From contig JBGTNL010000093.1 in the NCBI GenBank assembly GCA_041743085.1, forward strand, positions 44,704 to 108,703: DNA of 64,000 bases, given 5' to 3'. The number at the start of each line of letters is the position of its first letter. Position 1 is the stretch's first letter. The notes beneath the pieces are model-generated. The model was not told where the DNA came from. It worked only from the letters and a program-made list of their open reading frames with translations, and made no database searches. Origin of the DNA: Flavobacteriaceae bacterium. GTDB taxonomy: Bacteria; Bacteroidota; Bacteroidia; Flavobacteriales; Flavobacteriaceae. Both the position numbers and the translations under genes were made by a program. Shown here one piece after another: positions 1,794-42,670 of the stretch.

Positions 1794-4202
1794 ATGGAAC
1801 TAATCGTAAACTATTTGTGGGCATTTGGTATTTTGGGCCTTCTTTTTGTACTTGTTAAGAATATGTGGGTATCCAAACAGGAGGAGGGTAATGAAAAAAT
1901 GGCCAGAATTGCAAAGAATATTGCCGATGGAGCAATGTCCTTTCTAAAAGCGGAATACCGGATTCTTTCAATTTTTGTAATCGCCGTGGCCATTCTTCTG
2001 TATTTTAAGGGTGCTTCGGAAACCGGATCCAACGGTATGGTGGCTGTATCTTTCGTAGTAGGTGCTATTTGTTCGGCATTGGCCGGTTTTATTGGCATGC
2101 GCGTGGCTACGAAAGCTAATGTAAGAACTACTCAGGCCGCCAGGACTTCTTTGGGAAAGGCTCTGGAAGTTGCCTTCGCGGGAGGCTCTGTGATGGGACT
2201 TGGGGTAGTAGGTCTGGGCGTATTGGGACTAAGTGGATTATTCACCCTTTATAGTGGGCAAGGATGGGCAATCGGGGAAGTTTTGAACGTGCTTTCCGGG
2301 TTTTCTCTTGGAGCCTCTTCTATAGCTTTGTTCGCACGTGTAGGTGGCGGTATCTATACCAAAGCCGCAGATGTTGGTGCCGACCTCGTAGGCAAGGTGG
2401 AAGCAGGTATTCCCGAGGATCATCCTTTAAATCCGGCAACAATTGCAGATAACGTTGGTGATAATGTTGGCGATGTTGCGGGAATGGGTGCAGACCTTTT
2501 CGAGTCGTACGTAGGTTCAATTATCGGTACTATGGTATTGGGCGCCACTTTTGTTACTTTGCCGGAATTTACGGCTTCTTTCGATGGCCTTGGCGCGGTA
2601 TATCTGCCATTGGCCCTGGCCGCGGTTGGCATTGTTATGTCTATTATCGGTACTTTTTTAGTACGAGTAAAGGATGGCGGTTCCCCGCACAAGGCTTTGA
2701 ACATGGGCGAATTCGGATCTGCATTCTTAATGTTGATCGCATCCTATTTTATTATACAACAAATGCTTCCTGAAACCTGGATGGAAGGCGGAAAAGAGTT
2801 TACCTCTCTGGGCGTTTTCTGGGCCACGATCGCGGGCCTGGTTGCCGGATTGCTGGTAGGTAAAGTAACGGAATATTACACAGGAACTGGTAAACCGCCC
2901 GTTAGGTCCATCGTTCGGCAATCCGAAACGGGTTCGGCCACTAATATCATAGCAGGCCTTGGGGTAGGGATGATGTCTACAGCAATTCCCATTCTTTTGA
3001 TCGCAGCGGCTATTCTGGTATCCCACTATTTTGCCGGCCTTTATGGAATTGCCATCGCGGCTGTGGGGATGTTGGCAAATACGGGGATACAACTTGCCGT
3101 TGATGCCTACGGCCCTATTTCCGACAATGCGGGTGGCATAGCGGAGATGGCAGAACTGCCGGCTGAGGTCCGCGAACGTACCGATAAGCTGGATGCCGTA
3201 GGGAATACAACTGCCGCCATCGGTAAGGGATTTGCGATCGCGTCCGCAGCTTTGACAGCATTGGCATTGTTTGCCGCCTTTATGAAAACCGCAAATGTCA
3301 CGGCTATCGATGTATCACAACCCGATATTATGGCAGGGCTGTTGGTTGGAGGTATGTTGCCGTTTGTATTTTCGGCCTTATCGATAAACGCCGTAGGCCG
3401 GGCAGCTATGGCAATGATCGAGGAGGTGCGTCGGCAATTCAGGGACATCCCTCAATTAAATGCAGCGCTGGCCGTTATGCGAAAATATGATTCCGACATG
3501 TCCAAGGCGACCGAAGCTGATAGAAAAATATTCGACGCCGCCGATGGCTACGCGGAATACGATAAGTGTGTTGCGATATCCACTAAGGCCTCTATTAAGG
3601 AAATGGTCTTTCCCGGTCTGCTGGCAATTGCCGTGCCTGTTGCCGTTGGCTTTATAGGAGGTGCTGAGATGCTGGGCGGATTGCTTGCCGGAGTGACCAC
3701 TGCGGGTGTTTTGATGGCCATTTTCCAATCCAATGCCGGAGGCGCCTGGGACAACGCAAAAAAAATGATAGAAGAAGAGGGTAGAAAAGGTACGGAAGCC
3801 CATAAGGCAGCTGTAGTTGGGGATACCGTAGGAGATCCGTTTAAGGATACCTCAGGCCCCTCCCTTAACATTCTATTAAAATTGATGTCTGTAGTGGCCC
3901 TGGTAATTGCGCCAAGCATTGCGCTCTCTACTGATAGTCTGACAGCTTATGCCGAAAATGGGATGTTCAAGGAAGTGAAAAAAGAGGTTCGGGTAAAAAT
4001 GGAGAGCCAGCCGGACGATATGGTTAAGGCCATTGTGACAACCACCACTACCGAGGAGCGAAAAACCGCATCCAACGAATATGTTTACACAGGCAGTCCG
4101 GAAGAGGTAGAGGCCAGGATCAATGCCCTGCGTCAGGAAAAGGAGACTGATACCAAGGTGAATAAGGTGATTAAAGAGGTGGAGGTAGATGTGAATGAAT
4201 AA
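1794..4202 (+). CDS. hppA: Membrane-bound ion-pumping pyrophosphatase (K+-dependent sequence type) with a ~90-aa hydrophilic C-terminal tail
   Basis: 802 aa and polytopic. Contains [52 protein letters not shown] (the Ala-type motif of K+-dependent enzymes) and [17 protein letters not shown]. Confidence 0.9.
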
Positions 4203-4220
4203 CGAATGCCGTATAAAGCT

Positions 4221-4254
4221 AAAAAAACCCGTAACATAGTTTGCGGGTTTTTTT
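4221..4254 (+). terminator. Rho-independent terminator downstream of hppA
   Basis: The sequence aaaaaaacccgtaacatagtttgcgggttttttt forms a GC stem (acccg/cgggt), extended by A/T pairs and followed by a T-run, 19 nt after the hppA stop. Confidence 0.6.
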
Positions 4255-4278
4255 GTGGAATGGTATCTTAATAGCGCA

Positions 4279-5544
4279 ATGGAATACAACGACCTTACAG
4301 CATTGGGTATTGCCTTTGGTTTAGGGCTATTGGTAGGGCTGCAACGCCAAAAGACGGACAATAAGATGGCCGGTGTCCGCACCTTTACCCTTATCTCGGT
4401 TTTGGGGGTTATGAGTGGCCTGTTGTCCCGGGACCTTAACAATCCTTTCATCCTCCCCTTAATGGGTATTGCGTTAACGGCACTTTTAGTGATGGCAAAT
4501 ATCGTTAAGCTAAAAAAGTTTACTGACCCCGATGTGGGGCAGACAACAGAGGTTGCTGCGCTGCTGATGTTTGCAATCGGTGCTTATTTGGTGATGGGAG
4601 ATCGGGTTTTGGCGGTTATCGTGGGTGGTACTACTGCTGTATTGCTCTATATAAAAGAAAGGTTGCACGGTTTTATAGAACGGCTTAAAGAAAAGGATCT
4701 GTCGGCCATTATGACCTTCACCGGTATTTCTCTTATCATCCTCCCGATACTACCCGATCGGACCTATGGCCCCCTCGATGTTCTAAATCCCCGAAACATC
4801 TGGCTCATGGTAGTTTTGATAGTTGGCATTAGCGTCATAGGGTATTTTATATACAAGTTCGTTGGAAAAAAAACAGGGATCATTACCAATGGAATTTTAG
4901 GAGGCCTTATCAGTAGTACGGCGACGACAGTTAGTTATGCAAGAAAAACCTCCGGCACCAAATCCATTGCGAAAATTGCCGCGTTTATCATCACCACTGC
5001 CTCCGCTATTGCCCTGGTACGGGTTTTAATAGAGGTAGGAATAATCATACCGCAGAAACTTCCACAGATCATACTTCCCCTGGCGATCGAATTTTTTTTA
5101 ATGGCCTTGTTGTGCGTAGGTCTCTTCTATCTGATAAACAAGGATAATAAGGATGATGAAATGCCGGAACCTGAAAATCCGGCCCAATTCAAAAGTGCGA
5201 TGATCTTCGGATTATTATACGGCCTTATTTTACTGGCTGTGGCATTTACCAAACAGGAGTTCGGTAACAATGCACTTTATATAGTGGCAATAATCAGTGG
5301 CCTTACGGACGTAGACGCCATTACACTTTCCCTCTCGCAATTGATGAAAAATGACGGACTTGATGTTTCCACCGGATGGCGGTTAATTCTTCTGGCCTCA
5401 ATTTCCAATTTGTTATTTAAAGGTGTAATGGCCGCCATTTTGGGAACACGTCAGTTAGCCAAATGGATTTCCATTACTTTTGGCATTTCCATTGCAGCCG
5501 GACTTTTGATCATGTGGCTGTGGCCCGAAAACTGGCATTTTTGA
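4279..5544 (+). CDS. MgtC/SapB-like N-terminal domain plus DUF4010 integral membrane protein
   Basis: Polytopic ORF. The N-terminus LGIAFGLGLLVGLQRQ is MgtC-like. ATG 4279 is preferred over the track's GTG 4255, which abuts the terminator. Confidence 0.65.
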   Translation: MEYNDLTALGIAFGLGLLVGLQRQKTDNKMAGVRTFTLISVLGVMSGLLSRDLNNPFILPLMGIALTALLVMANIVKLKKFTDPDVGQTTEVAALLMFAIGAYLVMGDRVLAVIVGGTTAVLLYIKERLHGFIERLKEKDLSAIMTFTGISLIILPILPDRTYGPLDVLNPRNIWLMVVLIVGISVIGYFIYKFVGKKTGIITNGILGGLISSTATTVSYARKTSGTKSIAKIAAFIITTASAIALVRVLIEVGIIIPQKLPQIILPLAIEFFLMALLCVGLFYLINKDNKDDEMPEPENPAQFKSAMIFGLLYGLILLAVAFTKQEFGNNALYIVAIISGLTDVDAITLSLSQLMKNDGLDVSTGWRLILLASISNLLFKGVMAAILGTRQLAKWISITFGISIAAGLLIMWLWPENWHF

Positions 5545-16938: not shown

Positions 16939-19029
16939 ATGCAAAGCTTTAGAACAGAAATAGAAAATCCCGTTGTTGAAAAAGACATCCTTGAACTGGA
17001 AAAAAAGATAAGACAGTTTAAAGAGGGCAATCTTGATGAGGAGAAATTCAGAAGCCTGCGCTTGGCCCGTGGGGTGTATGGCCAAAGACAACAGGGTGTA
17101 CAGATGGTTCGTATTAAATTGCCCTATGGAAAAGTAACTGCCCGACAATTGCGGCGAATTTCCGATGTGGCCGACGAATATTCCACGGGAAGGTTGCACA
17201 TTACCACCCGGCAGGATATACAGATCCATTTTGTTGATCTGGAACGCACCCCGGAGCTTTGGGCGCAATTAGAAAAGGATGAGGTTACACTGAGGGAAGC
17301 TTGCGGAAATACGGTACGGAATGTTACGGCCAGCGAAACGGCCGGTATTGACCCCAATGAACCCTTTGATGTTTCTCCCTATGCCCAGGCTCTTTTTGAG
17401 TATTTTCTTAGGAATCCGATAGGGCAGGAAATGGGTAGAAAGTTTAAGGTTTCTTTTTCCGCCAGTGATGCCGATACCGGATTATCGTATATGCACGACC
17501 TCGGATTTATAGCAAAAATAGAAAATAACATCCGCGGCTTTAAGGTGATGCTCGGAGGGGGCCTGGGCTCCCAACCCCGTCACGCTGATGAACTTTACAG
17601 CTTCCTGGTCACAGATCAGATCATTCCCTTAATGGAACAAGTGTTGCGGGTTTTCGACCGTTATGGGGAACGACACAGCAGAGCCAAGGCACGAATGAAA
17701 TTCTTATTGAAAGACCTCGGGTTGGACGGCTTTAAAGAATTATTGGATAAGGAACAGAAGGCAATTCCGTATAAATCATATCCTATAGACAGTACAAACT
17801 ATCCCGAAGCCCGGATTGCAGAGGCAGCCATTCCAGAGGTGGAAATAAGGGATATCACGGCTTTTGAATTATGGAGATCCACCAACCTTGTACCACAGAA
17901 GCAGAAAGGTTATGTAGCAATAGGTATTAAGGTACTTCTGGGGGATTTTTATACAGATAAGGCCAGACAACTGGCCAGTCTTGTGGAAACATATGCGGGC
18001 GCAGAAGTACGGTTAACCCTCCGGCAGAATATTTTGATACCTCATGTTAGAGAATCCCTCGTTCCATTTTTCTACCGCGAACTTGAAAAATTAGGCTTTG
18101 CAGAACCTGGTTACAATAGGGCCTCGGATATTACGGCCTGCCCGGGAACAGATACCTGTAATTTGGGTATTGCAAGTAGTACTGGTATCGCAGGGGAATT
18201 GGAGCGGATCATAAAGGCAGAATACCCGCAGTACATCACCAACTCCGATGTAGCCATCAAGATCAGCGGTTGTATGAATGCTTGCGGACAACACAATATG
18301 GCCCATATTGGCTTTCAGGGAATGTCGATTCGCACTAAAGATAAGTTGGTCGCGCCCGCCCTTCAGGTACTATTGGGCGGAGGAAATCTTGGAAATGGTA
18401 ATGGCAGGTTTGCCGACAAGGTGATAAAAATACCAAGTAAAAGAGGGCCAGAGGCATTGCGTTATATTTTGGATGATTTTGAAGCCAACAGCAGTGGTTC
18501 GTCCTACGAGGTATACTATGCGGAAAAAGGGCAACACTATTTCTATGACCTGTTAAAGCCTTTGGCAGATATAGAAGATTTATCTGCCGACGATTACATT
18601 GATTGGGGCAGTAATGAGCGCTACGAGAAAGCCATTGGTATTGGAGAATGTGCCGGGGTGGTCATAGACCTTGTAGCAACTTTGTTATTTGAAAGTGAAG
18701 AAAAAATTGCCAATGCCATCTCTGCCTTCGAAGAACAAAAGTGGGCGGCAAGTATTTATCATGCCTATTCTTCAATTGTAAATTCGGCAAAAGCATTGCT
18801 TACAGCTGAAAATACCAAAACAAATACCCATGCTGGTATCATAACGGATTTTGATAGGTTATTTGTACAAAATAAACGATTGGACCTGGGTGTTTCCTTT
18901 GAGGAAATGGTTCTGCAGCTCAATAAAAATGAACCTACCGAAGCATTTTCTAGAAAATATCTGGAAAATGCACAGGAATTTTTGAAGTTGGCGGAGGTGT
19001 ATCGAAAAGAAGAATTGGAACATGTATAG
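16939..19029 (+). CDS. Siroheme/[4Fe-4S] sulfite reductase (ferredoxin-type hemoprotein) with a ~130-aa helical C-terminal extension
   Basis: 696 aa. The nitrite/sulfite reductase repeats and the cluster/siroheme cysteines CPGTDTCNLG ... SGCMNACGQH are present. Confidence 0.85.
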   Translation: MQSFRTEIENPVVEKDILELEKKIRQFKEGNLDEEKFRSLRLARGVYGQRQQGVQMVRIKLPYGKVTARQLRRISDVADEYSTGRLHITTRQDIQIHFVDLERTPELWAQLEKDEVTLREACGNTVRNVTASETAGIDPNEPFDVSPYAQALFEYFLRNPIGQEMGRKFKVSFSASDADTGLSYMHDLGFIAKIENNIRGFKVMLGGGLGSQPRHADELYSFLVTDQIIPLMEQVLRVFDRYGERHSRAKARMKFLLKDLGLDGFKELLDKEQKAIPYKSYPIDSTNYPEARIAEAAIPEVEIRDITAFELWRSTNLVPQKQKGYVAIGIKVLLGDFYTDKARQLASLVETYAGAEVRLTLRQNILIPHVRESLVPFFYRELEKLGFAEPGYNRASDITACPGTDTCNLGIASSTGIAGELERIIKAEYPQYITNSDVAIKISGCMNACGQHNMAHIGFQGMSIRTKDKLVAPALQVLLGGGNLGNGNGRFADKVIKIPSKRGPEALRYILDDFEANSSGSSYEVYYAEKGQHYFYDLLKPLADIEDLSADDYIDWGSNERYEKAIGIGECAGVVIDLVATLLFESEEKIANAISAFEEQKWAASIYHAYSSIVNSAKALLTAENTKTNTHAGIITDFDRLFVQNKRLDLGVSFEEMVLQLNKNEPTEAFSRKYLENAQEFLKLAEVYRKEELEHV

Positions 19030-19819
19030 AGAAGCAAAATTAACGGTTGTCGGCGCCGGGCCGGGAGATGTTGACCTTATAACGCTTAAAGGGATTAAAG
19101 CCCTGGAGACGGCTAATGTAGTGCTGTACGATGCTTTGGTGGATCCGGAACTATTGGATTATGCCCCACAAGCTGAACACATCTTTGTCGGGAAAAGAAA
19201 GGGCTGCTATACCTATCAGCAAGATCAGATCAATGAATTAATCGTTAGCCGCGCAAATTCCCACGGACATGTTGTACGACTTAAAGGAGGAGATCCTTTT
19301 GTCTTTGGTCGGGGAGCCGAAGAAATGGAATATGCTGCGGCTCATGGTTTGACAACGGCCATGGTACCCGGAATTTCTTCTTGTGTGGCGGTCCCGGCGG
19401 CACAAAATATTCCGGTTACCAAACGCGGAACCTCTGAGAGTTTTTGGGTCATAACGGGGACTACCAAGGAGCATAAGTTGTCAGCGGATATAGAACTTGC
19501 TGCGCAATCAAGTGCTACAGTAGTCATATTGATGGGGATGTCTAAATTGGCTTCAATCGTGGAATTATTTAAAAATGCGGGCAAATCCGAAACTCCGGTA
19601 GCCATCATCCAAAACGGTACCCTGGAAAATGAGAATATCGGGGTAGGGACCATTACAACAATAGAAGGCATGGTGCAAGAAAAACACCTGACCAATCCCG
19701 CCATAATCATCATCGGGGAGGTCGTAGGGCATAGAGAAAAAATAAATGAGCTGCAAGCATATCAGAACTTGGCAGACCTGCACAACAAGCAACTGGTACA
19801 GGAAATATACCCAGCGTAA
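19022..19819 (+). CDS. cobA: Uroporphyrinogen-III C-methyltransferase (siroheme branch)
   Basis: 265 aa with VGAGPGDVDLITLKG, LKGGDPFVFGRG and VPGISS. The start overlaps the sulfite reductase stop by 8 nt. Confidence 0.85.
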   Translation: MYREAKLTVVGAGPGDVDLITLKGIKALETANVVLYDALVDPELLDYAPQAEHIFVGKRKGCYTYQQDQINELIVSRANSHGHVVRLKGGDPFVFGRGAEEMEYAAAHGLTTAMVPGISSCVAVPAAQNIPVTKRGTSESFWVITGTTKEHKLSADIELAAQSSATVVILMGMSKLASIVELFKNAGKSETPVAIIQNGTLENENIGVGTITTIEGMVQEKHLTNPAIIIIGEVVGHREKINELQAYQNLADLHNKQLVQEIYPA

Positions 19820-20505
19820 TGGAACGAAACAATTTGTATCCAATTTTTCTGAAAACTTCTCACCTTCATGTATTGATCGTGGGTGGCGGGAATGTAGCGG
19901 AAGAGAAACTCCGGTTTTTAACGAAATCGAGTCCCGATGCCAGAACCACCATGGTGGCTCCCATGTTCAGGGAAGAAACGCTAAATCTGGCTAAAAAATA
20001 TGCCGTACAGATCGTTTATGATTGGTATGATATTAGTTATTTAAAAGGAAAACATGTGGTCATCGCCACTACGGACGAACCGGAGGTAAACATGCAGGTT
20101 TACAAGGATTGCAGGGAACAGGATAAGTTGGTGAATGTTGCGGATAATCCCCCGTATTGTGATTTTTATATGGGTGGAATCGTTACGAAAGGAAATGTAA
20201 AGCTGGCCATATCAACGAACGGGAAATCACCCACCACTGCAAAGCGCTTACGGCAGTTCTTTGAGGAAATTATACCGGAGGACATTGATAAAATGGTGAA
20301 AAACCTGAACGCCTACAGAAAGACACTAAAGGGTGATTTTGAATACAAAGTGGATAAAATGAATGAGGTTACCAAGACTCTCGTAGATAAAAAAAGGCGC
20401 TCTCCCTCAGAGGAAGAGGGGAATGAATCAGGCCTCTGGCGTGAGAAAGGGGCGTTTGAAAATTACCGGGGATCTGGGATAAAACCTTCCTTTATTAAAA
20501 GGTAG
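19819..20505 (+). CDS. Precorrin-2 dehydrogenase / sirohydrochlorin ferrochelatase (SirC/Met8-like)
   Basis: 228 aa with an N-terminal Rossmann motif VLIVGGGNVAEEK and a TAATG stop/start overlap with cobA. Confidence 0.75.
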   Translation: MERNNLYPIFLKTSHLHVLIVGGGNVAEEKLRFLTKSSPDARTTMVAPMFREETLNLAKKYAVQIVYDWYDISYLKGKHVVIATTDEPEVNMQVYKDCREQDKLVNVADNPPYCDFYMGGIVTKGNVKLAISTNGKSPTTAKRLRQFFEEIIPEDIDKMVKNLNAYRKTLKGDFEYKVDKMNEVTKTLVDKKRRSPSEEEGNESGLWREKGAFENYRGSGIKPSFIKR

Positions 20506-20530
20506 GCTAAATTAGTAAAGATTTGAAAAT

Positions 20531-21595
20531 ATGATCAAAACAGACATACTTATAATTGGAGCAGGTCCCACAGGGCTATTCACGGTCTTCGAAGCAGGAT
20601 TGCTTAAAATGAGGACCCATTTGATAGATGCCCTACCGCAGCCGGGAGGGCAATGTTCGGAGATCTATCCCAAAAAGCCTATTTATGACATTCCGGCCTA
20701 TCCCGAGATCTTGGCAGGGGATCTTGTAGACCGGCTATTGCAACAAATAAAACCCTTTGAACCCGGTTTTACGCTGGGCGAACGGGCCGAAACTTTGGAA
20801 AGATTAGAAGATGATACTTTCCTGGTAACCACCAATCAGGGCACAAAACATGTGGCACGGGTTGTAGTGATTGCCGGCGGACTTGGTTCCTTTGAGCCCC
20901 GGAAACCCCCCATTGAAAATATTACGGATTTTGAAGACAAAGGAGTAACCTATATGATCAAGGATCCTGAGAAATACCGCAATAGGAAAGTTGTAATAGC
21001 GGGTGGGGGGGATTCTGCCCTGGATTGGTCCATTTTCTTGTCCGACATTGCTTCTGAAGTGATTTTGGTGCATCGGCGAAATGAATTCCGAGGAGCCCTT
21101 GATTCTGTTGTGAAAGCTGCAGGTCTGGCAAAGCTTGGAAAAATTAAATTGTATACCGAAGCCGAAGTTAAAAAACTTTATGGCGACGAGCACCTCGAAG
21201 CGCTGGTATTGAAGCATAACGATCCAGGGAAAGGGGAAACCTATGTGGAAACGGATTACTTTATTCCCTTGTTCGGCTTATCACCTAAATTGGGGCCCAT
21301 GGGCGATTGGGGCCTGGAGATCGAAAAAAATGCCATTAAGGTAGACAACGCTTACGACTATCAAACAAATATACCCGGTGTCTATGCCATTGGAGACGTG
21401 AACACCTATCCGGGCAAGTTAAAACTCATCCTTTCGGGCTTCCATGAGGCAGCGGTAATGTGCCAGAGCGCCTATCAACGGGTATATCCGGGGAAGCGAT
21501 ATGTTATGAAGTATACTACCGTTGGAGGTGTTGAAGGTTTTGACGGAAGTAAAAAAGAAGCCAAAAAGGAAGTAGTACAAAGTATTGTTATGTAG
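20531..21595 (+). CDS. Thioredoxin-reductase-like ferredoxin-NADP+ reductase (YumC type)
   Basis: 354 aa with two dinucleotide motifs (IIGAGPTGLF and IAGGGDSALDW) and no CxxC redox pair. Confidence 0.75.
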   Translation: MIKTDILIIGAGPTGLFTVFEAGLLKMRTHLIDALPQPGGQCSEIYPKKPIYDIPAYPEILAGDLVDRLLQQIKPFEPGFTLGERAETLERLEDDTFLVTTNQGTKHVARVVVIAGGLGSFEPRKPPIENITDFEDKGVTYMIKDPEKYRNRKVVIAGGGDSALDWSIFLSDIASEVILVHRRNEFRGALDSVVKAAGLAKLGKIKLYTEAEVKKLYGDEHLEALVLKHNDPGKGETYVETDYFIPLFGLSPKLGPMGDWGLEIEKNAIKVDNAYDYQTNIPGVYAIGDVNTYPGKLKLILSGFHEAAVMCQSAYQRVYPGKRYVMKYTTVGGVEGFDGSKKEAKKEVVQSIVM

Positions 21596-21714
21596 AGTTA
21601 TAATTATTTGAATCTAAGTAATTCCCCTATGGCTTGCCTCGGGCCTGCCTGCCGCAGGCAGGGATAGTCGCCCGCCAGAGGCGGGTAAACTTTCAAGAAT
21701 TTTTTTATTTCGCT

Positions 21715-21753
21715 AAAAACCTTTTAACTATTAAAGTTAAGAGGTTTTTTTTT
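21715..21753 (+). terminator. Rho-independent terminator after the sulfur-assimilation operon
   Basis: aaaaaccttttaac-tattaaa-gttaagaggttttttttt forms an imperfect 9-bp stem flanked by an A-run and a T9-run. Confidence 0.55.
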
Positions 21754-21919
21754 GAAGGAAGGGTAAAGATAAAGCCTGGAAGGGGGAGTGTATGGAATAG
21801 CCCTGTTTAACCAGGTTTTTAGGACGTTCACAACTGCCATTTGTTAAAAAAAACGATCACTTTCCTTGGTTATCATCACGCTGTGGCGTTACTTTGCATC
21901 AGTTCATTAGCAAACTGAA

Positions 21920-22052
21920 GATCGTTATCAAGAAAGGTGGAGGGAATAGACCCTTTGAAACCTTAGCAACCCTTTTCCATCCCGATGACTCTTGGGATAT
22001 TGGTATAAAGAAGGTGCTACATTCTATCCCGCGGAGAGCGGGACAGATAACA
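21920..22052 (+). promoter_or_regulatory. SAM-I (S-box) riboswitch leader of metH-metF
   Basis: cgttatcaagaaaggtggagggaatagaccctttgaaaccttagcaaccc ... aaggtgctacattctatc ... gacagataac. The core is almost identical to the copy at 8862-9006. Confidence 0.8.
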
Positions 22053-22230
22053 CGCGGCAAGGTTTTACCGCTCTTGCTCCCAATTTCTTGATATATTTTA
22101 AAATAGCGTTCCCGCCAGTTGGCGGGCCTAACGCAAAATACGACCTTGAGGGACGGAAGGACTTTGTAGGTTTAAAACTGAAGTAATACAATAACAAGAA
22201 ATACTAAAGTCAGGTAAAAGCAATAAAAGC

Positions 22231-23235
22231 ATGACGGATATCAAAGATTTACTAAACGAACGGATCCTTATCCTGGATGGTGCCATGGGCACCATGTTAC
22301 AGCGCTATAAATTTAGCGAGGAAGATTTTCGCGGAGATCGTTTCAAGGATTGGCAACATCCTTTGCAAGGGAACAATGACCTTTTGTCCCTTACCCAACC
22401 AAAGGCTATAGAGGAAATACATAGAAAATATTATGAAGCCGGTGCGGATATTGTTGAAACAAATACCTTTTCGGGGACTACAGTGGCCATGGCGGATTAC
22501 CACATGGAAGAACTGGTTTACGAACTTAATTATGAGTCGGCCCGAATTGCAAAAAAAGTTGCCGAAGACTGTACCGCAAAACAACCGGATAAACCCCGCT
22601 TTGTGGCCGGAAGTATGGGGCCAACCAATAAAACGGCGAGTATGTCCCCCAATGTAAATGACCCGGGATTCAGGGCGATTTCATTTGATGACCTTCGCGC
22701 CGCCTACAAGCTACAAGCCGAAGGCCTGTTGGATGGAGGAGTAGATATCCTGTTGGTAGAAACGATATTCGATACTCTTAACGCCAAAGCTGCCTTGTTT
22801 GCAATAGAGGAAGTTAAGGATGAGCGGGGTCTATGGATCCCTATAATGGTGAGTGGTACTATTACGGACGCCTCCGGTCGTACATTATCCGGACAAACGG
22901 CAGAGGCCTTCTTAATATCTATTTCGCATATTCCCTTACTTTCCGTGGGCTTTAATTGTGCCCTGGGAGCAAGCCAGTTGACACCACATCTGGAGGTGCT
23001 TTCTGCAAAATCGGGTCATGCGGTCTCGGCACATCCCAATGCCGGCCTGCCAAACGCCTTTGGAGAATATGACGAAACCCCCGGGCAAATGGCGGAACAG
23101 ATTCGGGAGTATCTGGAAAAAGGATTGGTTAACATCGTTGGGGGTTGCTGCGGAACTACCCCGGAACATATAAAGGCAATTGCCGAATTGGCAAAGCAGT
23201 ATGACCCCCGGGCGCTGAAACTGGAAGTTGTCTGA
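22231..23235 (+). CDS. metH: Homocysteine S-methyltransferase module of methionine synthase (separate ORF)
   Basis: 334 aa with [14 protein letters not shown] and [11 protein letters not shown] (the Zn-binding Cys pair). The stop TGA is immediately followed by the ATG of the next module. Confidence 0.85.
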
Positions 23236-26200
23236 ATGAAGTCACAAGAACCAAAATATCTGATGTTATCCGGTCTGGAACCCTTAGTGGTCACTCCCGA
23301 AAGCAATTTTGTCAATGTAGGGGAGCGAACCAATGTGGCCGGATCCAAAAAGTTTCTCAGGTTAATAAAGGAGGATAAGTTTGAGGAAGCGCTCGATGTT
23401 GCCAGGCACCAGGTAGAAGGCGGCGCTCAGATCATTGATATCAATATGGATGATGGCCTGATCGACGGGAAAGAGGCAATGGTCAAATTCCTGAACCTTA
23501 TCATGGCAGAACCCGATATTGCGCGTGTCCCCATTATGATCGATAGCTCCAAATGGGAGATCATTGAGGCGGGCTTACAGGTAGTACAGGGCAAATGTGT
23601 GGTGAATTCCATAAGCCTTAAAGAAGGCGAGAAAGAATTTATCAGGCAGGCAAAATTAATTCGCCGTTATGGTGCAGCCGTTATTATCATGGCTTTTGAC
23701 GAGGTGGGGCAGGCCGATAATTTTGAGCGCAGAATCGAGATCACCAAACGCTCCTATGAGTTACTGGTTCACGAGGTTGGGTTTCCACCCCAGGATATCA
23801 TTTTTGACCTCAACATATTTCCCGTTGCAACGGGAATGGACGAACATAAACGGAACGCGGTTGATTTTATAGAGGCCACAAAGTGGGTGCGTGAAAATCT
23901 GCCGCACTCCCATGTCAGCGGAGGTGTAAGCAATGTTTCTTTTAGTTTCAGGGGCAATGATCCGGTCAGGGAGGCAATGCACTCTGTTTTTCTGTACCAC
24001 GCCATACAGGCCGGAATGGACATGGGGATTGTGAATCCGGCCATGTTAGAAGTTTATGATGATATTCCCAAGGATTTACTGGAGCGCGTAGAAGACGTGA
24101 TCCTGAACCGACGGGACGACGCAACGGAACGGTTGTTGGATTTCGCGGAAACAGTAATAGGACAGAAGCGCGAGAGCGGGGTTGATCTCTCATGGCGGAA
24201 AGAAGCGCTGCAGGATAGGATAACGCGGGCCCTGGTAAAGGGAATAGATCAATATATTGTTGAGGATGTGGAGGAGGCCAGGGTAAGCGTAAACAAACCT
24301 ATTGAGGTCATTGAAGGCCATTTAATGACAGGGATGAACGTGGTGGGAGATCTTTTTGGAAGCGGAAAAATGTTTCTGCCGCAGGTCGTGAAGTCGGCCC
24401 GTGTGATGAAAAAGGCCGTGGCACACCTTCTTCCTTTTATTGAGGAGGAGAAAAAAAAGGCCCCCAAACCCCCAAAGGGAGTTCAATATTGGCAAACTGC
24501 CAACCCCGTACTTTATAAATTGCTTAAAGAGGTTGCAGAAAAAATGCGCAACAAACCTACCAGGGCTGAAGAATTGCTTTGGAAAGCCCTAAGCAATAAA
24601 AATCTTGCTGGTTATAAATTCGGAAGACAACACATAGTAGGCGAATTTATTACAGACTTTATCTGCTTAAGTGAAAATTTGGTTGTAGAGGTAGATGGCC
24701 TGATCCATCAATTGCCAAATAACAAAAGCAGCGATTCCGAAAGAAATTCATGGTTGGAAAGTTTGGGATATAGGGTCATTAGATTTACCAATGATGAGGT
24801 TTTGTCAAACATTGAAGGCGTTCTGGAAGCTATCCATACCGCTTTAAAAGCACCCCCTTTGAGGGCGGGGGGGGCAGCCGGAAAGATACTAATGGCCACT
24901 GTGAAGGGGGATGTTCACGATATTGGTAAAAATATCGTCGGGGTGGTATTGGCCTGTAATAATTATGAGATTATTGATCTGGGCGTCATGGTCCCTCCGG
25001 AAAAAATAATCCAAAAAGCCAAAGAAGAACAGGTAGATATCATCGGGCTTAGCGGACTTATAACGCCCTCCTTGGATGAGATGGTCTTCCTGGCCAAAGA
25101 AATGGAAAGGCAGAAGTTTTCGGTTCCGCTGTTGATTGGAGGCGCCACCACCAGCAAGGCGCATACAGCAGTAAAAATAGATACACAATACAGTCAGGCA
25201 GTGGTGCATGTGAATGATGCCTCCAGGGCGGTAACGGTAGTAGGTGATTTGCTTCAAAAAGAATCATCCGATGGTTATAAGAAAACCGTAAAAACAGACT
25301 ATGAATCGTTTAGGGAAAAGTTCCTGAAACGAGGAAAGCAAAAGGAATATCTGTCCCTTGAAGCCGCCCGGAACAACAAGTTCCGTATCAACTGGAATTC
25401 CGAGGATATTTCTGTGCCCAAAGAACAGGGCATACAAATTATACCAGACCTTGACCTTAGAAAGTTGGAGGACTTTATAGATTGGACCCCTTTTTTCAGG
25501 AGCTGGGAACTCCACGGCAAATATCCGGATATTTTAAACGACGAGGTTGTTGGTGGGCAGGCCAGGGAACTTTTTAAAGATGCCCAAAAAATGTTACATA
25601 AGGTATTTGATAAAAAGTTATTGCGGGCGAAAGGTATTTGGGGACTTTTTCCGGCAAATACCAGAAACGATGATGACATAGAAGTCAATAATGAAGGTGA
25701 GCGGGTTATTTTCAGGACACTTCGCCAGCAACTTAAAAAACGGGAGGGAGTACCTAATTTTGCCCTTGCGGATTTTGTTGCACCCGGCGAATCCGGTATT
25801 CAGGATTATATGGGCTGTTTTTGTGTGAGTGCGGGATTTGGAACGGAGGAATTGGCAGAGAAATACAGAAAGGAACTCGACGATTACAATTCAATTCTGA
25901 TAAAAGCCCTGGCAGACCGACTGGCAGAGGCTTTTGCCGAATATCTACATAAAGAAGTGCGCATTAAACACTGGGGATATGCGAATGAAGAACAATTATC
26001 CAACGAAGAGTTGATCAAGGAAACCTATAAGGGCATACGGCCGGCTCCGGGGTATCCCGCCTGTCCGGATCACCTCGAAAAATTAACGATCTGGGAATTG
26101 CTGAAGGTGAATGAGAACATTGGCGTGGAACTTACGGACAGTCTGGCCATGTGGCCTGCCGCCAGTGTCAGTGGGTACTATTTTGCCCATCCGGAAGCGC

Positions 26201-26316
26201 GCTATTTCGGAGTAGGTAAAATTACGGAAGACCAGGTGAAGGATTTTGCGGATAGAAAGGGGATGGTACTGGAAGAAGCTGCAAAATGGCTGGCACCAAA
26301 CATGGCTGAAGAGTAA
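23236..26316 (+). CDS. metH: Cobalamin-dependent methionine synthase: pterin-binding, cap/B12-binding and AdoMet-reactivation modules, carrying a ~140-aa in-frame insertion
   Basis: Contains [11 protein letters not shown]..., the B12 motif [11 protein letters not shown] and the activation-domain segment [12 protein letters not shown]. It is 1026 aa; flavobacterial orthologues are recalled, not checked, as roughly 890 aa. Confidence 0.9.
24460..24879 (+). mobile_element. DUF559 / Vsr-like endonuclease module embedded in-frame in metH
   Basis: The translation [57 protein letters not shown]...[24 protein letters not shown] matches the DUF559 signature. G/C-rich imperfect inverted flanks lie at 24459-24480 and 24851-24874. 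Confidence 0.7.
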
Positions 26317-26489
26317 CCAGTATGGCCCGTGTCAGGGATTGGTATCCCGCCTTTGTGGGTTGTAATGGTGTATTAGGCGAAGGTGCCGCGTTAGGGATTG
26401 AGGTATTGTCGGAGCTCTTTTTGCGATCCTCCGGAACGTCCGGGGATCTTGCAAGTGAAAGCAAAAAAGCGACTACCGAAAGCCCGGTC

Positions 26490-26519
26490 CCCCTTCTCCG
26501 CCGATCGGCGGAGAAGGGG
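26490..26519. repeat. 30-bp perfect palindrome in the metH-metF spacer
   Basis: ccccttctccgccgatcggcggagaagggg equals its own reverse complement. No T-run follows it. Confidence 0.9.
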
Positions 26520-26601
26520 AACGCCCAAATTAAAGTGATAAAACATATTTAAAATAGACAACCCAACAATCGCCCTCTCCAAGTGATGAGGGGCTGAGGC
26601 T

Positions 26602-27555
26602 ATGAAAGTAACAGAGCATATAGAGAAAGCCAAGGGGGAAACCCTTTTTTCCTTCGAAATAATTCCCCCGGTAAAGGGTAGGAGCATCCAGGAATTATAT
26701 GATAATATAGATCCGTTGATGGAGTTCAATCCACCGTTTATAGACGTTACAACCTCCAGGGAGGAATATATTTATCTGGATAGAGATGGCTTGCTGGATA
26801 AAAAATTGACCCGGATGCGGCCCGGTACCCTGGGGATCTGCGCTTCTATTAAGCATAAATACAAAGTAGACACCATTCCGCACGTCCTATGCGGGGGTTT
26901 TACAAAGGAAGAAACGGAATACCTGTTGGTGGATTGCCACTATCTGGGCCTGGATAACGTGATGGCTTTGCGCGGCGACGCCAGAAGGGAAGAACAATAT
27001 TTTGAACCCACAAAAGGGGGGCATCCCTATGCCTTGGGACTGGTGAGTCAGATCAGGGACCTGAACTGCGGAAAGTATTTGCACGAAGTTATTGAAACCG
27101 ACGATTGTGCGGATTTCTGTGTTGGGGTGGCGGGTTATCCCGAAAAACATCTGGAATCACCTTCTCTAAAATCGGATTTAAAGCGACTAAAGGAGAAGGT
27201 GGAGGCCGGGGCTCATTATGTGGTAACGCAAATGTTTTTTGACAATAAGAAATATTTTGAATTTGTGGAAATGGCCAGGGAAATGGGCATCACGGTGCCC
27301 ATAATCCCCGGGATAAAACCCATTGCGGTAAAAAGGCACCTGCAATTGCTGCCTCAGGTATTCCGAATAGATCTGCCTCAGGACCTGATAGATGCAGTGG
27401 ACAATTGCCGGAATAATAAGGAAGTAAGGCAGGTGGGTATTGAATGGACCATTGCCCAATCCAAAGAATTAAAAGCCGCTGGAGTACCGGTTTTGCATTA
27501 TTATTCAATGGGAAAATCTGACAATATCAAGGCCATTGCGGATGCCGTTTTTTAA
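26602..27555 (+). CDS. metF: 5,10-methylenetetrahydrofolate reductase
   Basis: 317 aa with FSFEIIPP, LCGGF and VGVAGYPEKH motifs. Confidence 0.85.
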   Translation: MKVTEHIEKAKGETLFSFEIIPPVKGRSIQELYDNIDPLMEFNPPFIDVTTSREEYIYLDRDGLLDKKLTRMRPGTLGICASIKHKYKVDTIPHVLCGGFTKEETEYLLVDCHYLGLDNVMALRGDARREEQYFEPTKGGHPYALGLVSQIRDLNCGKYLHEVIETDDCADFCVGVAGYPEKHLESPSLKSDLKRLKEKVEAGAHYVVTQMFFDNKKYFEFVEMAREMGITVPIIPGIKPIAVKRHLQLLPQVFRIDLPQDLIDAVDNCRNNKEVRQVGIEWTIAQSKELKAAGVPVLHYYSMGKSDNIKAIADAVF

Positions 27556-27810
27556 CTGATATTATTTTTCAAACACGGAAGAAGCCGGGTAGGCATATTA
27601 ATTGTGTCGTCCCGAGGGTGTTGCCCTGAGCGCCTGCCGGTAGTAGGACAAAGAGTCGGTGAGTCCATACTATCGAAATGCACTTGAAACGCGTTAGAAA
27701 AGTAGCTTTAAATCTTTCTGTCCCGGCCGGCCGGCGAATCCGTACTTAAATAATGGAAGGAGTTCAAATTCTGCTATAATTACGTTTAAGATTTTCTATT
27801 TTTACGCCCA

Positions 27811-28911
27811 ATGACGGCCAGATTTTTTATTGCCTTGCTCTTTGCGAGCCTTTGGTGTTTCTCCCAGCAGGAAGAAGGTCCGGGGAAATACACATTAGAC
27901 GCCAATTACTTCTACGGGTCCATTATTTTACACAACCCTGATATTTCACATTTGATAAGGGAACATCCTTCCGGATTTATTCTTGGGTTCAATAGGAAAA
28001 CATTCGGCCATAAGGAATGGGAATCCGGGTACAATTATCCCGATACCGGTTTTTCATTTGCGTATCAGGATTTTAACAATAGCACTTTGGGTCGTAATTA
28101 TGGACTGTACGCACATTATAACTTTTATTTCTTTAAAAGATACCTTCAGTTTAGGATAGGGCAGGGGATCGCCTATAATACCAATCCCTACGATAAGAAT
28201 GACAATTTCAGGAACAATGCCTTCGGCACCCACCTGTTGAGTTCCACCTATCTGATGCTTAATTATTACAAGGAAAATAGTACCAGGCGGTTGGGTTTTA
28301 AGGCCGGTATTTCCATTGTTCATTATTCCAATGCCAATGTCAAGGCCCCTAATACTTCTACCAATACCTTTGCCTTCAATGCCGGGCTGGTGTATAATTT
28401 GGATGATTACGAAAATACAGAATATAGTAAACCCCGGGCAAGGACAAAAGTTAAGGAGCCCGTTCGCTACAATCTGGCCTTCAGGACGGGAATCAACGAG
28501 AGCGATGTGATCAACTCCGGGCAATTCCCCTTCTATATTTTATCTGCCTATGCCGATAAACGCCTGGGAGGAAAAAGTGCCATACAATTAGGCGCGGATG
28601 TTTATTTCTCCGATTTTTTAAAGGAACTGATACGGTTTCAGTCCATCTCCTTTCCGGAATTGAACATAAATGCTGACGATGATTATAAGCGCATAGGAAT
28701 GTTTATTGGGCATGAATTGTTTATCAATAAAATGAGTGTTGTATCTCAATTGGGATATTATATTTACTATCCTTTCGATTTTGAAGGGAGGGTGTACAAC
28801 AGGATGGGCTTAAAAAGGTATTTCGGCGAAAAGTGGTTTGCTTCGGTTACCCTTAAATCCCATGGGGCGAAGGCGGAGGCGGTTGAGTTCGGGATAGGGA
28901 TACGGTTGTAA
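27811..28911 (+). CDS. Secreted acyloxyacyl hydrolase / PagL-like lipid A deacylase family outer-membrane protein
   Basis: Signal peptide MTARFFIALLFASLWCFSQQ, a beta-barrel-like repeat pattern and a VHYSNA (H-x-S-N) motif. Confidence 0.5.
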   Translation: MTARFFIALLFASLWCFSQQEEGPGKYTLDANYFYGSIILHNPDISHLIREHPSGFILGFNRKTFGHKEWESGYNYPDTGFSFAYQDFNNSTLGRNYGLYAHYNFYFFKRYLQFRIGQGIAYNTNPYDKNDNFRNNAFGTHLLSSTYLMLNYYKENSTRRLGFKAGISIVHYSNANVKAPNTSTNTFAFNAGLVYNLDDYENTEYSKPRARTKVKEPVRYNLAFRTGINESDVINSGQFPFYILSAYADKRLGGKSAIQLGADVYFSDFLKELIRFQSISFPELNINADDDYKRIGMFIGHELFINKMSVVSQLGYYIYYPFDFEGRVYNRMGLKRYFGEKWFASVTLKSHGAKAEAVEFGIGIRL

Positions 28912-42113: not shown

Positions 42114-42330
42114 TTAAGTTGTTTGTGTCTGGTTCGACTTTGGTCCTATAAAATTAGGGAAAAAGTCCTGAAGGAGGTTCTTATCTTAAAATAAAGTAAG
42201 AGACAGGGTGTAAACTTTTAAAATACCAGGTAAAAAGTAACGGGCAGACAGTAATCAGTGAACGGGAAACTACCAAATACAACTGTAAGATAAAATTTAT
42301 TTTGTTCTGCTATTCGGCAACTTACTTTTT

Positions 42331-42570
42331 ACGACAAATTTCCCAAAATCCAGCAATTTGGTCCCAAACAGACCCCTCCCTAACCCTCCCCCAAGGGGAG
42401 GTAACCTGTTTTCATTGCAATGAAGGTGTCCGTTTCTTGCTGGATCTGCTCCCCTCCCCTTGCAACCGGCGAGCGAAAGCGAGAGGAAGGCACAGTCGGG
42501 GGGAGGTGGGGCTGTAAGGGAGGATATAGGGATCAGTTGATTGTTCTCCAAGAAAGGGGAAATTTGTCGT
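42331..42570. mobile_element. 240-bp non-coding element bounded by 14-bp perfect inverted repeats (MITE-like)
   Basis: acgacaaatttccc (42331-42344) pairs with gggaaatttgtcgt (42557-42570). The interior holds GC-rich hairpin modules, including one shared with the 15144-15362 element. Confidence 0.5.
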
Positions 42571-42670
42571 GCACCCACATACCGCCAAAATCATTCCTTA
42601 TAAGCTCTAAACTTTAAGTTCCGATTTTCGCGGCCGTATCCTGATAGGGAGGTATTGGCTTACTTAAAAT

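Follow-up and report, generated by a model that had tools for sequence, protein, structure and literature searches.

A DUF559 nuclease cassette resident in the cap-to-B12 linker of Flavobacteriaceae methionine synthase

We analyzed a 64,000-nucleotide stretch of DNA from a Flavobacteriaceae bacterium (contig JBGTNL010000093.1, positions 44,704 to 108,703; hereafter the window), in which the methionine synthase gene metH carries a 140-codon insert in the linker between the cap and the B12-binding domain. We found that this insert is a full-length DUF559/EDxHD Vsr-like nuclease domain with a restriction-endonuclease-like fold, and that the cassette encoding it is ancient and fixed in Flavobacteriaceae MetH, where it has been inherited vertically. 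Related cassettes lie within many unrelated genes, and we consider it probable, if well short of certain, that the window holds an old, fixed copy of a mobile nuclease cassette that is translated together with MetH, as an additional domain, and that its family spreads by homing-like conversion with occasional moves to new sites. The features on which this account relies are as follows (ORF, open reading frame).

23236-26316, + strand: large metH ORF of 1026 aa, methionine synthase with the cassette inside (Pfam, NCBIfam and 120 orthologues at 72-100% identity)
24460..24879, + strand: whole in-frame cassette, 140 codons (420 bp), A409-G548, comprising left repeat, N-terminal helical lead, DUF559 core and right repeat
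24461..24482, no strand: left terminal inverted repeat, degenerate, CCCCCAAACCCCCAAAGGGAGT, translated APKPPKG; forms an inverted-repeat pair with the right arm
24523..24846, + strand: DUF559 (EDxHD/Vsr-like) nuclease core, residues 430-537 (Pfam PF04480 at E 5e-34, Foldseek, phmmer)
24655..24708, + strand: active-site stretch, with D474 at 24655-24657, E485 at 24688-24690, D487 at 24694-24696 and H491 at 24706-24708
24852..24873, no strand: right terminal inverted repeat, degenerate, ACCCCCTTTGAGGGCGGGGGGG, translated APPLRAGGA

A nuclease domain within methionine synthase

The insert matches the PF04480 profile at 116.9 bits, against a cut-off of 20.6, over profile positions 3-108 of 109, bearing out an earlier reading of the sequence (hereafter the original prediction) in which it was taken for a complete Vsr-like module. 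An AlphaFold model of the insert alone (predicted local distance difference test score, pLDDT, of 79.6) matched the DUF559 crystal structure 3hrl in Foldseek with E 2e-7, a target-normalized template-modeling (TM) score of 0.90 and 39% identity, and phmmer found the same protein by sequence (E 8e-16). The model also matched 3r3p, the catalytic domain of the homing endonuclease I-Bth0305I, at TM 0.71, and the Vsr structures 1vsr and 1cw0 more weakly. The original prediction had raised the question of whether the insert folds independently, and in the full-length AlphaFold model residues 423-538 do form a separate domain, held by tethers (409-422 and 540-547) with pLDDT below 50. The columns of D474, E485, D487 and H491 are invariant or near-invariant (≥90%) in 82 DUF559 relatives, and these residues, together with the family-invariant R516, are retained in 116-118 of 118 MetH orthologues.

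We set the borders of the cassette by alignment with two MetH proteins that have an empty linker (L021 and L073) and with orthologues. This places the junctions at K408|A409 and G548|K549, reading K|APKPP and GAAG|KIL, and gives an in-frame insert of exactly 140 codons where about 140 had been estimated. As had also been reported, metH has no stop or frameshift; in the ORF list, ORF 23236-26316 is continuous and contiguous with the host sequence on both sides of the cassette. The G+C fraction is ~0.38 in the insert versus ~0.47-0.52 in the surrounding gene. The proposal that the insert is not an intein holds as well, as Pfam detects no Hint or intein family in MetH, neither junction has a Cys, Ser or Thr nucleophile, and the C-junction lacks His-Asn. 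An Rfam search of positions 21000-28000 at gathering score returned no group I or group II intron, only a riboswitch upstream of the gene. The cassette leaves just ~20-60 nt per side beyond the ORF core, and DUF559 is the sole family that Pfam finds in it, with no transposase or recombinase.

The cassette is not peculiar to this genome. PF04480 and the MetH domains occur together in 120 of the 120 closest MetH homologues (72-100% identity), which span ~20 Flavobacteriaceae genera and include complete genomes; among the genera are Flagellimonas, Croceitalea, Maribacter, Aquimarina, Leeuwenhoekiella, Christiangramia, Gillisia, Salegentibacter, Aequorivita, Zunongwangia and Cellulophaga. The position of the insert is identical across the aligned orthologues, and the flanking peptides are conserved as APQPPKGEQ(Y/H)WxTA(N/D)P ... 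APP(L/S)GAGGAGK. Full-length, unsplit MetH from a Spirosomataceae metagenome-assembled genome (MAG), Pedobacter and Melioribacter has an insert at this linker site too, as does Roseivirga MetH. Empty linkers were seen in distant MetH only, in the Chitinophagaceae proteins L021 and L073, where the linker has ~20 residues and lacks PPxGG. The original observation is confirmed and its interpretation supported in part; these results do not bear out the suggestion of a rare, possibly recent landing. A search among related Flavobacteriaceae MetH for an empty allele found all close relatives occupied, and every close orthologue thus carries the same segment, the pattern that the original prediction had associated with an ancestral feature of MetH.

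Mean identity to the window copy is 65% for the insert, 87-89% for the pterin, cap and B12 domains and 75% for the activation domain. The ratio of insert to host divergence is ~1.4-1.6 within the family, with a minimum of 0.77, and 0.95-1.27 across orders, with slightly low values (0.73-0.95) for the Spirosomataceae protein L009; the MetH-linker cassettes are mutual nearest neighbors. Insert and host therefore diverge roughly in parallel, which indicates that the cassette is old at this site and has been inherited with the gene. Recent horizontal transfer among MetH genes was considered and is unsupported, as no pair, including those among the 118 MetH orthologues, has an insert much closer than its host. 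The window copy is probably a resident, immobile one, because its terminal repeats have decayed. Further copies, which the original prediction had proposed to look for, were not found in the window: tblastn with the insert recovered only the insert itself, and the exact sequence of the right arm occurs once. A weak tblastn match at 19088-19138, within a uroporphyrinogen methyltransferase-like ORF, was rejected as due to chance.

Related cassettes and their ends

A HMMER scan with the insert gave 23,838 representative proteins at E ≤0.001, and we inspected the best 150, many of which are long proteins with DUF559 in mid-chain. The cassettes of this family are ~430-500 bp in size and consist of a DUF559 core between G/C-rich terminal inverted repeats (TIRs). 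At 56 of 80 genomic loci the cassette is embedded in a long ORF, with the frame open and an inserted length that is a multiple of three; nearly all of the 80 loci belong to Bacteroidota, with Ignavibacteriota and a few others making up the remainder. In dozens of independently predicted proteins, the insert interrupts Pfam domains of the host. The hosts include CinA, the homocysteine-binding (Hcy) and activation domains of MetH, SpoIIE/TPR phosphatases, adenine deaminase, RibD, MnmE, UvrC, isoleucyl-tRNA synthetase (IleRS, in one case with two cassettes), leucyl-tRNA synthetase (LeuRS, at two sites), a DegT aminotransferase, a sugar epimerase, a MobA-like protein, methylmalonyl-CoA mutase (MCM), an IcmF-like fusion and a fused CoA-transferase. 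The cassettes are placed in linkers or loops of these proteins, whose host portions form at least 45 sequence clusters. The original proposal of a selfish-cassette origin appears to have been right. The insert is one of a large family of TIR-bounded cassettes that reside in frame within many different essential genes. Viral contigs contain relatives at ≤50% identity only, and 34 of the 36 checked are free-standing.

Some of these loci deserve separate mention. At L029, L020, L040 and L051, as in the window, the cassette sits in a linker beside a B12-binding domain (in MetH, MCM or the IcmF-like fusion), a coincidence that is probably due to the long, tolerant linkers of B12 enzymes. A Flavobacteriaceae-like MetH on metagenome contig Ga0114964_10009273 (L166) has a cassette with linker-type ends in its activation domain, between ...DDIEVQ and FLTLRQQ. 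Free-standing DUF559 copies are found in tandem in a Prolixibacteraceae MAG (L041, 4001-4354 and 4723-5076), and a tandem pair lies within one ORF in an Anaerolineae MAG (L065, 1310-2158).

The G/C-rich imperfect inverted flanks noted in the original prediction are real: the repeat finder gives window arms of 22 nt that are 77% complementary, and these are decayed terminal repeats. The left one is a homolog of GCCCCCCCCGCCCCC-GAA-GGGGG, the intact form in relatives, whose right repeat reads CCCCC-TTC-GGGGG-C-GGGGGGGGC; in the window the left end has no perfect hairpin, and the right end retains only 3 bp. In related cassettes the repeat finder gives TIRs of 28-42 nt, 87-100% complementary and 375-435 nt apart, for example 29 nt at 100% (L012), 34 nt at 100% (L060) and 30 nt at 97% (L011, the MetH of Flavobacterium cyanobacteriorum). 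The MetH genes of L008 and L011 have intact repeats of 28-30 nt, and GCCCCCCCCGCCCCCGAAGGGGGAGCT is an example of an intact terminal repeat. Each end is built from an outer G/C box, a short spacer and an inner hairpin.

On either side, every embedded cassette has a flanking peptide of the PPxGG or PSPxGRG type. The DNA encoding these flanks forms perfect short hairpins with one homopyrimidine and one homopurine arm, such as CCCCC-AAA-GGGGG, CCCCTCCC-...-GGGAGGGG and CCCCTCTCC-AAA-GGAGAGGGG. Both ends of a cassette share one stem, stems vary between lineages, and one loop is mostly the reverse complement of the other. Among the codons that flank Flavobacteriaceae MetH cassettes, CCC makes up 45% of Pro codons versus 17% in the host (p 1e-4) and GGG 59% of Gly codons versus 15% (p 1e-12). 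This codon bias implies a constraint on the nucleotides and not on the peptide alone. The free-standing DUF559 copies of Bacteroidota bear the same ends.

The original prediction had likened the flanks to G/C-rich repeat modules elsewhere in the window. These modules are not further copies of the cassette, and the search yielded only one solo hairpin of the same homopyrimidine/homopurine class, CCTCCCC-CAA-GGGGAGG at 42385-42401 (intergenic region 42114-42670), with no nuclease close by; it could be a remnant or an independent repeat. Three proteins from the survey, P0224 (1214 aa), P0249 and P0253, have tandem hairpin-encoded peptide units around DUF559, for example LRERGLGDHA and GVGEGSGVRAELPSPRE. 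The first of these, P0224, has two DUF559 domains and is a methylase of the Eco57I type.

Selection, spread and competing explanations

Because synonymous sites are saturated between the window and its nearest DNA relatives, we used closer pairs at other loci to estimate the ratio of nonsynonymous to synonymous substitution rates (dN/dS). In eight of nine measurable related pairs, dN/dS of the cassette is 0.04-0.10, like that of the host gene; the ninth, the IleRS pair L025/L027, gives 0.55 on very few substitutions (dS 0.057). These values show that the nuclease is under purifying selection, and it is presumably active. Decayed copies also occur, including L073, in which the DG..H motif is lost, P0002, with an internal deletion, and P0211, with substitutions.

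Some of the signs of mobility come from three host genes. Cassette dS is far below host dS in a LeuRS pair (L058/L063; 0.086 vs 1.27), a CoA-transferase pair (L010/L012; 0.154 vs 0.81) and the IleRS pair (0.057 vs 0.27). For L058/L063, third-position identity climbs from ~0.5 to 1.0 across the cassette and falls off gradually on either side of it, with synonymous identity of 180/197 inside versus 235/397 outside (p 1e-17), and synonymous identity in the CoA-transferase pair likewise peaks over the cassette and decays into the flanks. The L058/L063 profile suggests homing with co-conversion, of which such a pattern is expected. In IleRS, a 150-codon cassette of L027 with ends CTGCCCCCTAAATCCCCC...GGGGGATTTAGGGGGCAG is missing from its close relative L025. 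No target-site consensus or duplication was evident at the few junctions examined.

The ends of the MetH-type cassette recur at other sites. They are found at the MetH linker, at two sites in the activation domain, in the Hcy domain, in LeuRS and in the CoA-transferase, and the cores of the cassettes in the CoA-transferase, LeuRS, the Hcy domain and a further activation-domain site are 57-73% identical to MetH-linker cassettes. The L027 IleRS gene contains two cassettes (2273-2722 and 3988-4422) whose cores are 56% identical and whose repeats are of the same type (GCCCCCTAAATCCCCC...); shared repeats despite divergent cores suggest homogenization within the genome or a shared recognizing factor. 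A scan of metagenomes with a 20-base G/C pattern from the right repeat gave 88 matches, of which 79 have no DUF559 nearby and are possibly unrelated G/C-rich DNA; we used only the nine matches with a nuclease and three paired elements without one. These three nuclease-less elements, of 260-290 bp, lie on separate contigs (L161, 4352-4641; L180, 7444-7733; L202, 11877-12136) and have ~65-nt inverted repeats that end in the 23 nt of the MetH-type cassette, with an internal minisatellite. They may be non-autonomous derivatives resembling miniature inverted-repeat transposable elements (MITEs).

In Bacteroidota, the family resides in conserved genes at inter-domain linkers or surface loops, in frame and free of stops. 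These observations are consistent with a model in which host transcription and translation would make the nuclease as one more domain of the protein that houses it. Nothing would splice this domain out, and it would stay in mature MetH. The repeats would be translated as Pro/Gly-rich tethers (PPxGG), and the ~13-kDa domain would hang off the linker and leave movement of the B12 domain unblocked. From the sequence patterns of the relatives, we infer that spread within one host site would occur by homing-type gene conversion between alleles, with an occasional move to a new site, and the inverted-repeat hairpins would be needed for some step at the DNA level. In the window lineage the cassette has been inherited vertically with MetH for very long; the nuclease has remained under purifying selection, and the terminal repeats have decayed. 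The mechanism of mobility proposed here for the family is an extrapolation from these patterns.

Several observations weigh against this model. A homing endonuclease needs no terminal inverted repeats, and the fact that they are conserved is better explained by a transposon-like step than by homing alone. It is also difficult to see how the small DUF559 core, which has no obvious additional DNA-binding domain, would recognize many different long targets. The sole close MetH pair, L006/L007, gives no co-conversion signal; the signal is confined to other host genes and comes from MAGs, in which other local recombination could yield the same pattern. A target-site duplication is not evident at the L025/L027 junctions. 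Finally, the active site has survived a long period of vertical descent in MetH, no close relative was seen with an empty allele, and such long retention is unexpected for a purely selfish homing gene and leaves room for a host function. Domestication and a repeat-directed, transposon-like step are live alternatives, and neither need conflict with the homing-like model.

If the domain is domesticated, the nuclease fold would be kept in MetH for a host function and not for mobility, for example as a spacer or docking module for the B12 cycle, as a partner-binding surface, or as a Vsr-like DNA repair activity that moonlights in MetH and is expressed together with the methionine operon. Fixation in all 120 close orthologues and in other orders would agree with this, as would the retained active-site residues, the low dN/dS of close MetH-linker pairs (~0.08-0.09 vs 0.04-0.06 for the host), the decay of the window repeats around an intact protein, the lack of a recent-transfer signal among MetH genes and the position of the cassette beside the B12 domain in three B12 enzymes (MetH, MCM and the IcmF-like fusion). 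However, the same cassette with the same ends is found in more than 20 unrelated enzymes that share only permissive linkers, other taxa have cassettes in at least four other places in MetH, and the MetH of Chitinophagaceae and E. coli functions with an empty linker. Perfect hairpins with rare codons in most Flavobacteriaceae MetH likewise speak for a DNA-level, not a protein-level, constraint, and we regard domestication as unlikely. A transposon-like mode of mobility, in which the nuclease would cut a hairpin or cruciform formed by its own TIRs, the cassette would jump, and only in-frame insertions in tolerant loops would survive, we judge possible, although on the improbable side. It would account for the long, near-perfect TIRs and the stem variants that co-vary between the two ends, for one repeat type at six or more sites and on both L027 IleRS cassettes despite cores that are merely 56% identical, for the nuclease-less elements with the same terminal 23 nt, and for the free-standing Bacteroidota copies with the same repeats. 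On the other hand, the cassette encodes no recombinase or strand-transfer enzyme, and no PD-(D/E)XK-type nuclease is known to transpose DNA by itself. The L025/L027 comparison shows no target-site duplication, long-lived site-specific lineages and flanking co-conversion are hallmarks of homing, and the right-repeat G/C pattern also occurs in many possibly unrelated G/C-rich contigs (the 79 of 88 matches without DUF559).

A different class of explanation holds that the insert is removed, whether by RNA excision across the paired repeats, by ribosomal bypass between the two identical hairpins or by a novel form of protein splicing, and that mature MetH would be of normal size. Pairing between the outer G/C boxes at either end is possible and would bring together the host flanks, and each end has its own hairpin; hairpin-assisted translational bypass has been tied to mobile nuclease elements in phage T4 (bioRxiv 10.1101/2022.08.31.505936). 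We nonetheless consider removal very improbable, because every embedded cassette preserves the host frame, with a length that is a multiple of three and no stops, all of which would be unnecessary if the insert were skipped or excised. In addition, no Hint domain, conserved nucleophiles or intron family is present, and the window hairpins are degenerate in a gene that is otherwise intact. An assembly chimera or a pseudogene can be practically dismissed: an independent 174-kb NCBI contig and a Logan assembly encode an identical protein, and the architecture recurs, with an open and conserved frame, in the 120 homologues, complete genomes among them.

The homing-like model can be extended into a broader and more tentative proposal, which we think somewhat less apt to hold than to fail, that the cassettes are an unrecognized class of minimal autonomous mobile elements that occupy the niche of inteins without splicing, cut their own ends as junction-like DNA and link homing with transposition. 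The outer G/C boxes and inner hairpins would fold into junction-like DNA that the element's own nuclease cuts, and stop-free repeats encoding flexible Pro/Gly tethers would make the insertion harmless. Such elements, if they exist, would explain nuclease-less derivatives with the same ends.

Known systems and the surroundings of metH

The mobile EDxHD/Vsr-like nucleases described so far reside in group I introns, in inteins or in free-standing ORFs that fracture a host gene (PMC2677866, PMC3239194, PMC3384342). EDxHD homing endonucleases such as I-Bth0305I (Dassa et al. 2009, PMC2677866; Taylor et al. 2011, PMC3239194) share with the cassette their fold, active-site pattern and residence inside conserved genes, and relatives of the cassette show signs of allele-to-allele spread with co-conversion. 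Unlike them, the cassette is fused directly into the host frame, has no splicing element and has long TIRs, and the large DNA-binding region at the N terminus of I-Bth0305I has no counterpart in it. Inteins with a homing endonuclease resemble the cassettes in being in frame within essential genes, persisting long at fixed sites, showing presence/absence polymorphism (among the cassettes, in IleRS) and being expressed by the host, but the cassette lacks the Hint domain, junction nucleophiles and His-Asn, and is expected to stay in the mature protein.

Other parallels concern the repeats. The palindromic elements of Rickettsia reported by Ogata et al. in 2000 are also in frame and translated as an extra peptide in tolerant surface regions; reportedly, they are ~100-150 bp and encode no enzyme. 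The cassette differs from those elements in encoding a nuclease, which makes it autonomous in that sense, and in belonging to a different phylum. Small TIR transposons, MITEs and repetitive extragenic palindromic (REP) elements with RAYT transposases likewise have hairpin-forming TIRs around a single small gene, and the possible nuclease-less derivatives with the cassette's ends extend the parallel with MITEs. In contrast to transposons and REP-RAYT systems, the cassette has no DDE, HUH, serine or tyrosine recombinase, shows no target-site duplication and lies inside genes, not between them. The closest structural match, 3hrl, is the free-standing DUF559 protein NGO0050; it and the E. coli PRK09767-type proteins are separate genes with no assigned function, whereas the window copy is a domain of MetH. 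Many free-standing DUF559 copies nevertheless share the Pro/Gly-coding G/C hairpins at their ends.

The original prediction had known of no description of this architecture. Hundreds of database entries have it, and some cassette-bearing MetH proteins are named 'DUF559 domain-containing protein' by NCBI. In a limited literature search, however, we found no description of direct, unspliced, in-frame residence with TIRs, the nearest being the 'fractured gene' arrangement. The MetH architecture is thus common and already in databases, and it appears to be the cassette biology behind it that is undescribed.

Introns are spliced out of the RNA and inteins out of the protein; the cassettes would represent a third solution for a selfish nuclease gene housed in an essential gene, namely to stay as a tolerated extra domain. 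They also provide a natural map of enzyme sites that tolerate insertions of 130-170 residues, for example in MetH, LeuRS, IleRS, MCM, MnmE and UvrC; one of these sites is the MetH linker, which must swing the B12 domain. Hundreds of 'DUF559 domain-containing' entries for MetH and aminoacyl-tRNA synthetases, and the common tails of the PSPxGRG type on DUF559 proteins, would be explained. As a tool, a nuclease that is small and whose DNA ends are defined may prove useful in practice.

The assignment of the host gene to metH follows from a TIGR02082 score of 1209 (cut-off 1011) and a GDVHDIGK motif (DxHxxG). The window MetH is a split enzyme, with the Hcy module alone followed by an ORF that runs from the pterin to the activation domain; in the relatives from other orders L009, L014 and L015, MetH is a single fused protein. 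The remaining features of the gene and its neighborhood are listed here, with residues numbered in the large metH ORF.

22231..23235, + strand: Hcy-binding module of MetH, a separate ORF of 334 aa directly abutting the large metH ORF (Pfam S-methyl_trans, E 6e-100)
Residues 29-267: Pterin_bind (Pfam)
Residues 326-398: B12-binding_2, the cap (Pfam)
Residues 430-537: DUF559, PF04480 (Pfam)
Residues 549-642: B12-binding (Pfam)
Residues 740-1009: Met_synt_B12, the activation domain (Pfam)
26602-27555: metF, downstream of metH

The riboswitch found by Rfam is an S-adenosylmethionine (SAM) riboswitch (RF00162, 72.8 bits) at 21922-22053 on the + strand. It lies upstream of the metH operon, and the cluster of Hcy module, metH and metF is therefore likely regulated by SAM. 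The spacer between metH and metF (26317-26601, 285 nt, G+C ~0.51-0.53) has no Rfam match at gathering score. Further upstream, the genes at 16939-21595 resemble a sulfite reductase/siroheme cluster, judged from their translations: a sulfite reductase hemoprotein, a uroporphyrinogen methyltransferase, a siroheme synthase-like protein and a flavoprotein reductase. Such a cluster would fit a neighborhood devoted to sulfur amino acids.

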